This document shows, one piece after another, positions 4,182 to 51,243 of a stretch of DNA of 64,000 nucleotides. Both the position numbers and the translations under genes were made by a program. This DNA is from a virus (taxonomy: Duplodnaviria > Heunggongvirae > Uroviricota > Caudoviricetes): the IMG/VR virus record IMGVR_UViG_2721755711_000002, one strand, 5' to 3'. Within the stretch, counting starts at the first letter, position 1. Every line of letters starts with the position of its first letter. Under the pieces are notes generated by a model. That model did not search any database, had not been told where the DNA came from, and saw only the letters and a list, made by a program, of their open reading frames with translations.

Positions 4182-5070
4182 TTTGTCCGCGATACCTGTA
4201 CCGGATGCGGTGGAGGTGCCGGACACCGCTGTGCTGGTCACTCAGATAGTGGCGAAATATCAGGAACTGGACACGTTGTTTTCGGCCCTGGTGGAATCAG
4301 ATCCGGCGTATAAATGGGCGGAGGCGCTTGCTTTTCGGGTGGCGCTGATGCGCCAGCAGGTCAATGATGCAGTCCGGGCTGTACTGCTTGCCAGTGCCCG
4401 CAGGAACGATCTGGATCAGATTGGTGCGAATTTTCAGGTGCAACGTCTGGTGATTACTCCGGCAGATGACAGCACTATCCCGCCCACACCGGCGGTGTAT
4501 GAAGGGGATGATGCCTTTCGTGAGCGTATTCAGTTGTCGTGGGCGCGACTCAGTACAGCCGGTGCGAAAAATGCTTACCATTATTTTGCACAGAGTGCTG
4601 ATCCTGATGTGCTGGATGTGAAAGCCTACGGGCCGGAAACGCATTCACAGGAAGGGCGTGTTTTTCTTTATGTGTTATCGCGAACCGGAAACGGTACGGC
4701 ATCGCAACCCCTGCTGGATAAGGTGGCAGCGTCAGTCAATGATGATGAAATTCGACCTCTGACGGATTTTGTCAGTGTCCGTGCGGCAGAAATTATTCCC
4801 TACGATGTGGTTGCAGATATTCATATTCCCTACGGGCTGGATGGTGAACTGGTGATGAAAAATGCCCGTCAGGCGCTGCAGACATACACTGACAGTGTTC
4901 ACCGGATTGGTTCTGTGGCGTCCTGCTCCGGTATGGACGGAGCCCTGCATCAGACGGGGGTGATTACGGTGGCACTGAAATCGCCGGCCAGTGATATTGT
5001 TCCGGCGATGGGACAGGCTCCATGGTGTCGCTCAGTCACACTGAACAAGGTGGAGGCAACCGATGAATGA
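4156..5070 (+). CDS. Baseplate assembly protein, P2 gpJ-like
   Basis: IIDL...P-P-VVE, GANF...L-ITPADDSTIPPTPAV as in P2 J; apparent TTG start at 4156 with RBS ggagg. Confidence 0.8.
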   Translation: MTTSQAIIDLSAIPVPDAVEVPDTAVLVTQIVAKYQELDTLFSALVESDPAYKWAEALAFRVALMRQQVNDAVRAVLLASARRNDLDQIGANFQVQRLVITPADDSTIPPTPAVYEGDDAFRERIQLSWARLSTAGAKNAYHYFAQSADPDVLDVKAYGPETHSQEGRVFLYVLSRTGNGTASQPLLDKVAASVNDDEIRPLTDFVSVRAAEIIPYDVVADIHIPYGLDGELVMKNARQALQTYTDSVHRIGSVASCSGMDGALHQTGVITVALKSPASDIVPAMGQAPWCRSVTLNKVEATDE

Positions 5071-19335: not shown

Positions 19336-19667
19336 CCGTAATCTCCTTAAAAACAGGAGATTAAATTTTACCCATTCTTAATGTCCGTTCAAGTTCATAC
19401 TTTACAACCGCGCCCAGTTGAGTATGATTAAGCGCATGAGGCGTCGAAACCTCTTCTCAGTGCGGTCACAACCAACCCCGTTAGTGTTGGATTTTTTATG
19501 CCTGCTATTTAGTGATGGCACAATGTGCGGTCACATCCCCGAACAATGTCGGGAGGGCGACGAATACAACACCCGAAAGGGGAATAAGTCCGCGGCCTCA
19601 CTGAGCCGTTTCGAACCTCCCGGCTCCACTCCGATAGTGGAAATTCGAAAAAATCAGTGAGGTCGTT

Positions 19668-42521: not shown

Positions 42522-42728
42522 TTATTGCTTTAGTGTCATTTGCGCTTCAATAAAGCGACGGCGGTTCTCCGCAATAACAAACGCCATTGCCAGCCCTTTG
42601 ACGGCTGCATCATGACCATACCGGGTCTGAGCAGCAGCAAACCTTCGTTCTATCGCTGCTACAGAATCAATGGCAGAATCTGCTATGCAATTTTCAAATT
42701 CAGTTATCACTTCTGTCGAAGAGGTCAT
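42522..42728 (-). CDS. Small hypothetical protein (uncertain)
   Basis: 68 aa; its ATG abuts the divergent plus-strand ATG within CATATG. Confidence 0.25.
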   Translation of the reverse strand: MTSSTEVITEFENCIADSAIDSVAAIERRFAAAQTRYGHDAAVKGLAMAFVIAENRRRFIEAQMTLKQ

Positions 42729-43409
42729 ATGTACTCCCTGAAAATTAGATGCCCGTACTGCCTTCATCAGGTTCATATTTCTCTGAATGAGGTCACCCAG
42801 TACCACAGCAGGCGCCCGGCTACAGAAAACAAGCTTTACGTGCAACAGCCGCGCACCTCTGAAATAACATCAGCAAAAGCATACTCAACAGACTTTTGCA
42901 CAGAATGTAACAACCCATTAATGATCGCATTCGAATGTTCAGTCAGTGAACTGGTGGACATGAAAAAAGCCATCAACAACAAAGCCTGGGTGCTGAATGC
43001 TCCACTTGAGGGAAGCATCAAAATCTATCCTGAACTCAGGCTGCCCGATGACTCCCCCCACTATCCCGAAAAAATTCGCGCAGTCTTCACCGAGTTGCAA
43101 GAGGATGTTCGGTCCGGCAGAACCGCCCCGCGTATCATTGTTGGCTGCCGTAGCGTCCTCGAGGTTGCCCTCCGTGCCCTGGGGTACGAAAAAGGCAATC
43201 TGCTGTCACGCATTGAACTGGCACGGCAGGACGGCATACTGACGGAATCAATGAGAAACTGGGCTCACCGAATCCGTATGGAAGGCAATGAGGCTGTGCA
43301 CGAGCTCGAGGCCAGTGGTGAACAGGCAAAAGAGTTTGTGGCGTTTCTCCGCCTGTTCCTTGAAGTGGCATTTGTGCTACCGGAACGCATTAAGGAACAG
43401 CAGCAATAA
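42729..43409 (+). CDS. Zinc-ribbon protein with C-terminal DUF4145-like domain (cargo gene, opposite strand)
   Basis: CPYC...CTEC pairs at N-terminus; C-terminal ...RNWAHRIRMEGNEAVHELE... resembles DUF4145; RBS gaagagg. Confidence 0.55.
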   Translation: MYSLKIRCPYCLHQVHISLNEVTQYHSRRPATENKLYVQQPRTSEITSAKAYSTDFCTECNNPLMIAFECSVSELVDMKKAINNKAWVLNAPLEGSIKIYPELRLPDDSPHYPEKIRAVFTELQEDVRSGRTAPRIIVGCRSVLEVALRALGYEKGNLLSRIELARQDGILTESMRNWAHRIRMEGNEAVHELEASGEQAKEFVAFLRLFLEVAFVLPERIKEQQQ

Positions 43410-43443
43410 AAATGCAGCGGGCTTTCAATGCCCGCTCAAATAA

Positions 43444-43602
43444 TCAGCTGTTGTTTTTGTTCCGGAATAAAGGCCGGAGCACGACCAGCGCCATCGCCAC
43501 CAGTACACCATCAGCCAGTACCGACATCAGCCGTCCGGTGAAATCCACCGCCACTACCAGAAACAGCAGGACGGCAGCCAGCGCAAGGCGTGCACTTTTC
43601 AC
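43444..43602 (-). CDS. Small two-helix membrane peptide (52 aa), coupled to TerB-like gene
   Basis: GTG start overlaps TerB-like stop (GTGA); translation KSARLALAAVLLFLVVAVDFTGRLMSVLADGVLVAMALVVLRPLFRNKNNS; below ORF-track size cutoff. Confidence 0.3.
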   Translation of the reverse strand: MKSARLALAAVLLFLVVAVDFTGRLMSVLADGVLVAMALVVLRPLFRNKNNS

Positions 43603-44024
43603 AGGTACTGCTCCAGCGGTAACTGCAGCGCCTGAGCAATTTTCTTGAGCTGTGCTTCTTCATCCGGACCAATGCCATCCTGGTCTGCGATATCCAGACA
43701 CAGGCACAGCACATTAACGGCATCATCAGTACCGGCGACATCAGCCAGTTGACGGAGGGCTTCAGCATTGGCAGAACGCGGCGATGCTTCATAACGGGCG
43801 CGGATATTCGCGCTCATCTGGGCAATCTCACCGGAGAACGGCGCAAAGGCAGGAAGTGCTGCAATGGTTTTCTCCAGTACCGCAATTTCTTTCGCGTCAC
43901 AGGTGTCGTCAGCGTATGCAATGGAATACGCGCCCCAGACGGTCGCCTCCACCGCGTCGCGGTTCTCCATTTTCTTCACTTCAGTAATAGCCTTACGGGT
44001 TTTCTTTTTGAAAATACCAAACAT
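43599..44024 (-). CDS. TerB-like domain protein
   Basis: ~141 aa; acidic helical protein (...DTCDAKEIAVLEKTIAAL...DIADQDGIGPDEEAQLKKIA) resembling TerB family. Confidence 0.5.
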   Translation of the reverse strand: MFGIFKKKTRKAITEVKKMENRDAVEATVWGAYSIAYADDTCDAKEIAVLEKTIAALPAFAPFSGEIAQMSANIRARYEASPRSANAEALRQLADVAGTDDAVNVLCLCLDIADQDGIGPDEEAQLKKIAQALQLPLEQYL

Positions 44025-44221
44025 CGTGACTTTTCCTTTTAGTGGGTGAGCCTCGCCCCGGGATGAGCAGCCCACAGAGAAAGTCACACTGACCATCCCG
44101 TAAGCTCCCCCCTGAAAGGCTCTGTGGTTTTTTGATGTGCGCCGGGCGTGGCGCAGATATGAAAAAGGCCACGCACGTGCGCAGCCTGATAATTTTCTGA
44201 ATCAGCGGAGTGTCAGCTGGT

Positions 44222-44749
44222 TTACCCTTTCACTTCTGAAAGGGATTTTTTGCCAAACGTCACTTCATTCATTGACATAAGTATGCTGTCTTTAATGTAT
44301 TCGCACACTTCATTAATTTTTGCGTTGGTATCCACATGCGAAAATGTCCTGGCCTGATAACCATCAACCGAAATCGTCATGTTGTCGCCATCAAGTAACA
44401 GAATACTCACTGTAATATTCACACTTACAGACTGGCGGGGATCATCATCAACAACCGTATATAAATTAAAAGTAACCCCATCCTGAAAATCTACCTGCAA
44501 ATCCTCCGGTTTCTCACAACAACTATCATGAGAAAGATAAACATAGGGATGGGAGTTACCGTCAATATCCAGCCATCGTGGTTTCGGCAATGCCAGTGAG
44601 TCTTCATAGGTCTTGACCAGCCTTTTTGCCATATCCCGCAGTCGCTGGATGTACTCCTGTCTGGCCTCCTGAATTTCAGCCTGCTTTGCCCGAATGTCTG
44701 CATATGTGATCACAGTCTCAATTCTCCTGTATACAGAAAAATAAAACAT
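44222..44749 (-). CDS. Hypothetical protein (AT-rich cargo gene)
   Basis: Start uncertain (M103 of ORF 44222..45055). Confidence 0.3.
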   Translation of the reverse strand: MFYFSVYRRIETVITYADIRAKQAEIQEARQEYIQRLRDMAKRLVKTYEDSLALPKPRWLDIDGNSHPYVYLSHDSCCEKPEDLQVDFQDGVTFNLYTVVDDDPRQSVSVNITVSILLLDGDNMTISVDGYQARTFSHVDTNAKINEVCEYIKDSILMSMNEVTFGKKSLSEVKG

Positions 44750-45112
44750 AATAATAGCCAACCGGGAAAAGATGAAAAATGCCATAACAGAACAGGCATT
44801 GCGCACGGATAAAAAAATGCCCGTCATGAGACGGGCTAAAACATTCATCATGCAAGAGTTAAGCAGGATTACTTGTATCGAATTATCGGTATCAGAATGA
44901 GTCGTCAACCTGCAACCGCAATTCTGGCGAATCGTAGGCCCCGGCACAGGCGACGACTCATTCTGATAACGCATACCATTAACAATGTAAAAAACACAGC
45001 ACTGAAACTGTAACCGATCAGGCATTACAGAATGAAGAAAATAAAATGTCCGCAACCAGATTCTTCACGAAAATGCGCCAGTGCTGATAAAACTATGACT
45101 CATCAGTTTTAC

Positions 45113-45189
45113 TGGAGAGCGGGTGACGGGAATCGAACCCGCATCATCAGCCTGGAAAGCTGAGGTAATAGCCATTATACGATACCCGC
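45113..45189 (-). tRNA. tRNA-Gly(UCC)-like gene, possibly degenerate
   Basis: GCGGGTATCGTATAATGGCTATTACCTCAGCTTTCCAGGCTGATGATGCGGGTTCGATTCCCGTCACCCGC...; resembles glyT as recalled but with an A7-C66 mismatch and TCTCCA instead of TCCA at the 3' end. Confidence 0.5.
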
Positions 45190-50797: not shown

Positions 50798-50953
50798 TTA
50801 CTCCTCAGATTCGTAAGCTGTGAAGACAGCGACCTCCGTCTGGCCGGTTCGGATTCGTACCTCGCAGAGGTCTTTCCTCGTTACCAGTGCCGTCACTATG
50901 ACGGTTAAACAGATGACGATCAGGGCGATTAACATCGCCTTTTGCTGCTTCAT
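50798..50953 (-). CDS. hok: Hok/Gef family type I toxin
   Basis: MKQQKAMLIALIVICLTVIVTALVTRKDLCEVRIRTGQTEVAVFTAYESEE; in-frame leader upstream (mok-like) and GC-rich stem-loops downstream. Confidence 0.8.
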   Translation of the reverse strand: MKQQKAMLIALIVICLTVIVTALVTRKDLCEVRIRTGQTEVAVFTAYESEE

Positions 50954-51243
50954 AGCCTGCTTCTCCTTGCCTTTCGGCACGTAAGAGGCTAACCTACATG
51001 TGTTCAGCATGGATTGAGCCTCAGATTAATGTTAAGCGTCTTGCAGGACGCGTAATGTTAACTGGGGCTTTTCTCTATCTGCCGTTGGTGTTCATGCCCG
51101 AGGCAGATAGCCTCAAGCACCCGCAGCAATTCTACTTAACTCTCCTTTTCCCGCAAACCGTTTTTATCCCCATCGGCAAATCGAATACACCACCAGCGCC
51201 ACCGCCATCGCAATTCCTACCGTTGTGAATGCTTCGGGCCAGG

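Follow-up and report, generated by a model that had tools for sequence, protein, structure and literature searches.

The window, by which we mean the whole 64,000-nucleotide stretch of DNA analysed here, holds the late region of a lambdoid prophage on its minus strand. In this region lie two overlapping genes, tciA and tciB, with a conserved leader ahead of them and a terminator behind them. The features of the locus are as follows.

44166 to 44187, minus strand: terminator-like hairpin (AGGCTGCGCACGTGCGTGGCCT plus TTTTCATATC), found by scanning, at the upstream edge of the conserved cassette
44025 to 44164, minus strand: conserved leader of about 130–140 nt upstream of tciA, a candidate structured RNA
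43599 to 44024, minus strand: tciA, encoding a TerB-like protein of 141 amino acids, predicted to be cytoplasmic (ATG at 44024, TGA at 43601–43599)
43444 to 43602, minus strand: tciB, encoding a DUF3927 peptide of 52 amino acids, predicted to be a membrane peptide (GTG at 43602–43600, TGA at 43446–43444)
43416 to 43436, minus strand: intrinsic terminator, found by scanning and folding, which closes the cassette 8 nt past the tciB stop codon

The stop codon of tciA and the start codon of tciB share the letters GTGA, giving a 4-nt overlap, and a GGAG located 8 nt upstream of the GTG provides a putative ribosome-binding context for the small gene. The original prediction, made from the letters of this DNA, had described a TerB-like frame with its stop codon, the GTGA overlap, a 52-codon frame and a hairpin with a U-run at 43416–43436, all of which we recover at the same positions on the minus strand. 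The hairpin is GC-rich and folds with −19.6 kcal/mol (z = −3.1 against shuffled sequences).

Comparison with protein families identifies both products. The 52-residue product matches Pfam DUF3927 (PF13064) over residues 4–49 with 51.9 bits against a cutoff of 25 (E = 7e-14), and PHROG 1470, ‘TciB-like’, with E = 1.5e-24. TciA matches PHROG 632, ‘tellurite resistance’, with E = 5e-64, and Pfam TerB (PF05099) with E = 1.4e-6 (29.0 bits against a gathering score of 24.4), the latter in a partial alignment of TciA residues 11–57 to model positions 60–106. The exact 52-residue protein is already present in NCBI as ‘DUF3927 family protein [Escherichia coli]’, occurring in 183 contigs. Among 5426 complete genomes of E. 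coli, 380 have a match to the cassette DNA and 164 hold most of the query, and RefSeq labels all the matches listed as ‘tellurite resistance TerB family protein’ followed by ‘DUF3927 family protein’. The element is thus almost certainly the tciA–tciB cassette of the phage P1 type, which has been catalogued before. The small frame had been called unannotated; this is correct for the list of open reading frames used at that time, whereas NCBI, RefSeq, Pfam and PHROG all contain it. The DUF3927 family itself is narrow and stands alone, as a profile search of 1.8 billion representative proteins returned only 96 clusters, nearly all of them 45–70 amino acids long.

We further compared the cassette across viral and bacterial genomes. 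Conservation of the small frame in homologous loci had been named beforehand as a check, and it is borne out. Fourteen genome loci retain the intact 3′ end of TciA together with the DNA beyond it; TciB adjoins TciA in every one of them, and the junction reads ctGTGA or TGATG/TAATG. In the close, near-identical IMG/VR loci, tciB is intact with the GTGA overlap in 79 of 80, and the lone exception (L083) is cut by a rearrangement. We then collapsed 240 more distant viral loci into 88 distinct TciA proteins, reaching down to about 30% identity. TciB adjoins TciA in 76 of these 88, including 35 whose TciA is only 30–40% identical to that of the window. At 70 of the 76 distant loci, the overlap between the tciA stop and the tciB start measures 1 or 4 nt, in agreement with the predicted coupling. 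TciA is at least 75% identical across Enterobacterales genera. When three distant TciB proteins were looked up individually, two lay directly 3′ of an annotated TerB gene, and the third is preceded by an uncharacterised gene fragment, whose end it overlaps.

A short frame with a GTG start, below typical cutoffs for open reading frames, might have arisen by chance, so that only the TerB-like gene would be real. This explanation is excluded for practical purposes by the profile matches, by the conservation of the locus and by selection on the protein. The ratio dN/dS of tciB against its homologues lies between 0.14 and 0.66, with synonymous sites saturated in distant pairs, and the gene is conserved across genera with an invariant motif described below. 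tciB is under purifying selection, and the 52-codon frame is a genuine conserved gene, though not a new one. Because its start always overlaps or abuts the stop of tciA, as in translational coupling, a single mRNA probably yields both products together. The Shine-Dalgarno sequence before tciB is weak in many loci (GGAC, GGAT or GGAA), and we found no mRNA structure hiding the tciB start beyond that of shuffled sequences (z = 0.43).

The AlphaFold model of TciA (pLDDT 86, pTM 0.82) is a six-helix bundle preceded by a disordered, basic N-terminal tail (MFGIFKKKTRK...). Its best structural matches are 2h5n and 2ou3; a PDB sequence search with the TciA profile had found no solved TerB structure, and the fold search was used instead. 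According to this model, TciA has the TerB-like helical-bundle fold. Two acidic motifs of the ADGxxDxxE type and the N-terminal MFxxFKKK are kept in the family down to about 30% identity. In the first ADG, the window TciA has an Asp in place of the Gly of its relatives.

TciB contains two hydrophobic segments at approximately residues 6–19 and 25–42, in line with the two hydrophobic helices that had been proposed, joined by the turn VDFTG(R). Lys and Arg residues are found at both termini and concentrate, across the family, at positions 2–5, 24 and 47–49. All of 22 diverse members share Asp20 and Asp31, and nearly all share Phe21 and Ser27. The family motif runs from a hydrophobic helix through a VDFT(S/G) turn, an S..xDG element and a second helix to WP and a basic tail; in the window TciB, R43 replaces the usual W. 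The charge pattern is consistent with an N-in/C-in hairpin whose outer turn is very short. Since the first hydrophobic segment is short (about 14 residues), it may possibly be read as an N-terminal signal peptide instead.

Natural fusions were rejected as evidence for an interaction between the two proteins. The long DUF3927 matches are chimeras or frameshifts (with a His-phosphatase fragment, an ABC fragment or a frameshifted TciA), and the sole TciA–TciB fusion, P0172, comes from a single contig and resembles a read-through artefact. An AlphaFold model of P0172 gave pLDDT 50–70 for the TciB part and pTM 0.64 with no confident docking, a result that, lacking alignment depth for TciB, is uninformative rather than negative.

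The closest described relative is tciABC of phage P1, annotated in 2004. The window TciA and TciB are 85% and 46% identical to their P1 counterparts, respectively. Common to both are the stop/start overlap, a two-helix TciB with the VDFT...S...DG...WP motif, and accessory status. In P1, a genome-wide CRISPRi screen found tciA, tciB and tciC to be non-essential (PMC10695390), the cassette not being required to form plaques, and about half of the subgroup-1 phage-plasmids have lost the tci operon (PMC9603915). On the other hand, the two cassettes differ in several respects. The overlap is GTGA (−4) in the window and TGATG (−1) in P1. P1 carries tciC, encoding a 35-residue peptide with a single transmembrane segment, whereas the window has a terminator right after tciB, and a tblastn search of the window for TciC gave no significant match (best E 0.53, elsewhere in the window). 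The P1 cassette belongs to the C1-controlled ban operon, while that of the window is found behind Q, in the late region of a lambdoid prophage. The conserved leader is present in the window and absent from P1.

The gene order around the cassette is as follows, reading along the late region.

DUF968 gene
RusA gene
antiterminator Q gene (47710 to 47015)
DNA methylase gene
tRNA-Gly gene
uncharacterised open reading frame (phrog_5091)
tciA–tciB and its terminator
DUF4145 gene, convergent
two holin-family genes
M15 endolysin gene
terminase gene

The cassette therefore occupies the slot between the Q antiterminator and the lysis genes of a lambdoid E. coli prophage. This interval is known to accept cargo genes, or ‘morons’, such as stx (PMC4104026), and the same slot holds the cassette in prophages of Nissabacter, Citrobacter and other Enterobacterales. 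An adjoining tRNA gene is common in the lambdoid loci, and is seen in P1 and an Erwinia phage. We rejected tRNA adjacency as a general rule: a tRNA lies within 1.5 kb in just 6 of 89 diverse loci, so this adjacency reflects the insertion slot and not the cassette. A search for a sigma-70 promoter of tciA gave one weak match only, abutting the upstream terminator, and located no promoter. Expression of tciAB in the window would come from the Q-antiterminated late transcript, reading through the flanking terminators.

This position directly upstream of holin and endolysin genes in lambdoid prophages suggests that TciB might set the timing of lysis, as a holin- or antiholin-like class II protein with two transmembrane segments under the control of TciA. 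The two hydrophobic helices and the charged termini, predicted to face inward, are compatible with the class II holin pattern, but 52 residues is less than typical for holins and TciB matched none of the holin families of Pfam and PHROG. Two holin-family genes are already present in the window, where the terminator and a convergent gene separate the cassette from the lysis cassette. Moreover, no lysis genes adjoin the pair in P1, in Erwinia jumbo phages or in Pantoea phage LIET2. We consider a role in lysis timing very unlikely.

The distribution of the cassette extends beyond prophages. We found TciA homologues in 91 deposited phage genomes, strictly virulent ones included; among the virulent carriers are N4-like Salmonella phages, Erwinia jumbo phages, Pseudomonas Nickievirus and Pantoea phage LIET2. 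The genome authors of the lytic N4-like phage Pollock have already called the role of TciA unknown (PMC4319500). In the three checked virulent-phage loci having a small downstream frame (Erwinia phage Caitlin, Pseudomonas phage ZY21 and Pantoea phage LIET2), this frame is a TciB homologue located 3′ of TciA.

We notice that the partner of TciA can be exchanged. Twelve of the distinct TciA proteins come without TciB, and in 10 of these cases another small membrane protein, with a single pass, occupies the junction. The replacement partner, phrog_27356, is about 67 residues long and starts −10 to +2 nt from the TciA stop. It has one N-terminal hydrophobic helix, a Cys-containing, extracytoplasmic-looking domain and a conserved C..WYGYQTER..GCMVK..GW.PR motif, matches no Pfam family and is unrelated to TciB. 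No small membrane gene follows TciA in PMBT3, in Vibrio phage BUCT194 and at loci L198 and L247. As the hairpin peptide is swapped for an unrelated single-pass protein in some lineages, what stays constant is that a TerB-like protein is co-translated with some small membrane protein, and the latter can be replaced.

These observations bear on the interpretation initially given to the pair, that of a membrane-acting toxin or abortive-infection system. In such a system, TciB would depolarise the membrane, be restrained by TciA, and be released on phage attack or loss of the element. The order of the genes, soluble protein first and membrane peptide second, and their overlap resemble type II toxin–antitoxin operons, and every TciB found had a partner gene upstream of it, whereas TciA does occur alone. 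The accessory location in prophages and phage-plasmids, from which the cassette is often lost, would also suit such a system, as would the occurrence of TerB domains in the Bunzi and Shango anti-phage defence systems reported in the literature. However, neither protein matched any PADLOC model (Bunzi, Shango and TerY-P included) at E ≤ 0.1. The pair is also kept in strictly virulent phages, jumbo and N4-like phages included, in which a suicide module protecting lysogens is not expected. The swap of the partner fits a TerB protein that needs a membrane partner better than a specific pair of toxin and antidote, and the invariant buried Asp/Ser/Thr motif of TciB speaks more for a specific structure than for a peptide that disrupts membranes in a generic way. 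The toxin interpretation thus finds no positive support, and we regard it as unlikely. The literature searched contained no direct experimental report on the function of TciA or TciB.

We next consider the pair beside other systems with TerB domains. TciA resembles the TerB proteins of ter operons (terZABCDE), and the TerB-like superfamily in general, in its Pfam TerB match, its helical bundle and its paired acidic ADGxxDxxE motifs. The partner in ter operons is the multi-pass TerC, whereas that in the window is a peptide of 52 residues, and a search around tciAB found none of the TerZ, TerA, TerC, TerD and TerE neighbours, so that the cassette is not part of a ter operon. The label ‘tellurite / colicin / cell division’ attached to tciA derives solely from its homology to terB. 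TerB is reported to be membrane-associated, and the TerB protein of Bunzi has transmembrane helices (bioRxiv 10.1101/2022.05.11.491447). DjlA combines a transmembrane helix, a TerB-like domain and a J domain, the last of which TciA does not have. In DjlA and the Bunzi TerB protein, a single chain places the TerB-like domain at the cytoplasmic face of the inner membrane, whereas tciA and tciB are separate genes. By analogy, TciA and TciB would achieve the same placement with two co-translated chains.

A phage TerB homologue tethered by TciB could also serve as a decoy against host defence, mimicking or titrating the TerB systems of the host (ter, Bunzi and Shango). Host TerB systems inhibit phages; many virulent phages carry the cassette, apparently in early or accessory regions and not beside lysis genes, and the conservation of TciA across Enterobacterales genera is very high. 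Nevertheless, TciA has no HMM similarity detectable to components of Bunzi or Shango, and the literature searched contains no experimental hint of a decoy. To our knowledge, ter operons are missing from most hosts that carry the cassette, which likewise counts against this idea. We judge the decoy rather improbable.

Upstream of tciA, the leader is present in 111 of 331 loci, in 57 variants. The DNA beyond the upstream hairpin is highly diverse among the leader-bearing loci, and in related loci the leader is preceded by an equivalent hairpin and T-run whose stem has another sequence. Three helices, all on the minus strand, find support in an alignment of 24 variants.

44154–44150 with 44143–44139, minus strand: helix P0
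44127–44120 with 44079–44072, minus strand: helix A
44111–44102 with 44053–44044, minus strand: helix X, which crosses helix A and so gives an H-type pseudoknot

In the helices, 93% of the alignment cells are paired, compared with 35–53% in slid controls. The helices have a covariation score of 0.164, a value that 0 of 500 shuffles reached (their mean was 0.106). Both sides have changed in seven pairs, although the 24 variants are closely related (74–100% identity) and such counts are not independent events. The compensatory changes include that from CCACAGAG/CUCUGUGG to CCAUGGAG/CUCCAUGG or to CCGCAGAG/UCUGCGG. Taken as a single sequence, the window leader folds no more stably than its shuffles (z = −0.47). 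The Shine-Dalgarno sequence AAGGA lies just 3′ of helix X, and an invariant CCUUU in the leader loop could pair with it.

Among the genomic leader copies with enough downstream DNA, 108 of 112 have tciA 78–81 nt past the search pattern. At L449, a full copy stands before another gene, one encoding a signal-peptide protein. We also considered whether the leader is one of the known prophage sRNAs (AgvB, AsxR, STnc100 or Pas) and rejected this, since no Rfam family matches it; the preprint on Pas names TerB merely as a neighbour gene within 10 kb. With its covarying helices, the leader is a candidate cis-regulatory RNA, which possibly tunes translation.

On the basis of these comparisons, we propose that TciA and TciB form a membrane-tethered TerB module that acts in phage development, perhaps for protection of the envelope or against superinfection. 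Taken as a whole, this statement seems to us evenly poised between right and wrong; for its central part, we think it likelier that TciA and TciB form a complex at the membrane than that they do not. In this model, TciB would insert into the inner membrane as an N-in/C-in hairpin and serve as the membrane partner, or anchor, of the cytoplasmic TciA, giving a split version of the ‘transmembrane helix plus TerB-like domain’ layout. The buried Asp residues of TciB, together with the acidic motifs of the TerB-like bundle, may bind a cation or a small ligand. The complex would work at the inner membrane during phage development.

What it does there is our guess, drawn by analogy. TciAB may protect the infected cell from insults directed at the membrane, such as the entry of a superinfecting phage or pore-forming colicins. 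The analogy comes from ter operons, to which inhibition of phages and resistance to colicins have been ascribed, and it is a weak one, because no TerC, TerD or TerZ is found near tciAB. Small inner-membrane proteins for superinfection immunity, such as Imm of phage T4, are made during infection and are dispensable in the laboratory. TciB is likewise a very small phage membrane protein but comes with a soluble TerB-like partner, and we know of no sequence relationship between TciB and T4 Imm. For the standalone TerB of Erwinia jumbo phages, a role in competition with superinfecting phages has been suggested (PMC7824862).

In its widest form, the proposal is that TciA with a miniature membrane partner, either TciB or the interchangeable phrog_27356 protein, makes up a widespread membrane module of temperate and virulent phages of Gammaproteobacteria, which may for instance block superinfection or blunt host defences that act on the membrane. 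The pseudoknotted leader RNA, itself not described before, would control translation of the module in lambdoid prophages in response to a signal such as a metal ion, temperature or an sRNA. We put this extended version forward as a speculation that is unlikely to hold in full.

The gene pair itself adds little to what is already catalogued, being recorded as tciAB of P1, DUF3927 and PHROGs 632 and 1470, and annotated in RefSeq. The value of our survey lies in the finding that a small membrane protein is co-translated with the soluble TerB-like protein in almost every case, a pairing that extends from prophages of E. coli to lytic phages of the jumbo and N4-like kinds. Such near-universal pairing suggests that a specific complex forms at the membrane. 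In addition, the leader with its covarying helices is a candidate for a new cis-regulatory RNA. The pairing also offers a simple, testable handle on the role of the TerB domain, including that in the ter, Bunzi and Shango systems.

In the window's copy of tciA, which encodes the TerB-like protein, codon 40 (43906-43908) specifies Asp where the first of the conserved ADG motifs normally has its Gly (YADDTCD vs YADGTCD); this Gly is kept in 13 of the 15 aligned relatives.

The membrane peptide TciB is absent from loci L184-L192, L238, L316 (Pseudomonas phage AF) and L329, in which a protein of ~67 aa directly follows the TciA-like gene, with its start located at -10 to +2 nt relative to the TciA stop. 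This protein, phrog_27356, has a single TM helix at its N-terminus and shows the conserved motif C..WYGYQTER..GCMVK..GW.PR. It matches no Pfam family, and its ORF in phage AF carries no annotation. The phrog_27356 protein looks like an alternative membrane partner for TciA. The Vibrio phage BUCT194 locus displays another arrangement: two TerB-family genes lie in tandem (1-1395 and 1501-2177 of that locus), one TerB-family gene is followed by an annotated membrane protein of 339 aa, and an 83-aa soluble ORF overlaps the downstream end of the TciA-like gene in place of TciB.

On both sides of tciAB, the window contains further genes:

42540-43409, + strand: convergent DUF4145 gene, flanked by the terminator of tciAB and the holin genes
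44222-45055, minus strand: long ORF upstream of tciA, with a PHROG 5091 match

The true start of the DUF4145 gene is probably internal to its interval. The gene matches PHROG 1305, together with a weak PADLOC match to PD-T7-4 (E 1e-3), and its role is possibly defence. Since it lies downstream of tciB in only a handful of the E. coli genomes listed, it is likely cargo separate from tciAB. As for the upstream ORF, the match to PHROG 5091, a group of unknown function, is limited to residues 115-268, and a terminator-like hairpin is found inside the frame at 44819-44836. This mechanical ORF probably overstates the length of the real gene.

tRNA genes near the cassette and Rfam matches elsewhere in the window are as follows:

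45117-45189 in the window, and in P1 (L001), Erwinia phage Caitlin (L018), L019 and several lambdoid loci: tRNA-adjacent tciAB
50948-51122, minus strand: sok antitoxin RNA (Rfam, 113 bits)
19548-19632, + strand: sRNA-Xcc1 (Rfam, 72 bits)

Phage tRNA genes often adjoin tciAB, in lambdoid prophages, P1 and an Erwinia jumbo phage. Among 89 diverse loci, however, only 6 have a tRNA within 1.5 kb, so the adjacency is probably a consequence of the cargo slot and not of a functional connection. In one close relative (L050, 3129-3304), the sRNA STnc100 (Rfam, 94 bits) is positioned just downstream of tciB and ahead of the lysis genes. In a 2026 preprint, TerB is one of the conserved neighbours given for the prophage sRNAs PasA and PasC. 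The sok match implies a putative hok/sok module in the early region of the prophage.

The region 5' of tciA contains the following features:

44025-44164, minus strand: conserved leader of ~130 nt upstream of tciA
44166-44187, minus strand: hairpin beside the leader
44107-44112, minus strand: G-run within the leader, on the 5' side of helix X

The leader contains three covarying helices, one of which makes a pseudoknot, and no Rfam family matches it. In helix X (44111-44102 paired with 44053-44044), the window's variant has G instead of the usual T, giving one mismatch, and the length of the G-run differs between the near-identical loci L071, L072 and L089 (GGGGGG, GGGGGGG or GGGGGGGG). The upstream contexts of the leader and tciAB are highly varied, and the leader moves together with the cassette. 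We consider it a candidate for a new cis-regulatory RNA. From position 4781 of locus L449 onward, a full copy of the leader, including the SD, precedes a different gene, which encodes a signal-peptide protein (MLKNVLAACMAAFVFLSASASA...). The tciA leader can thus be recombined onto other cargo.
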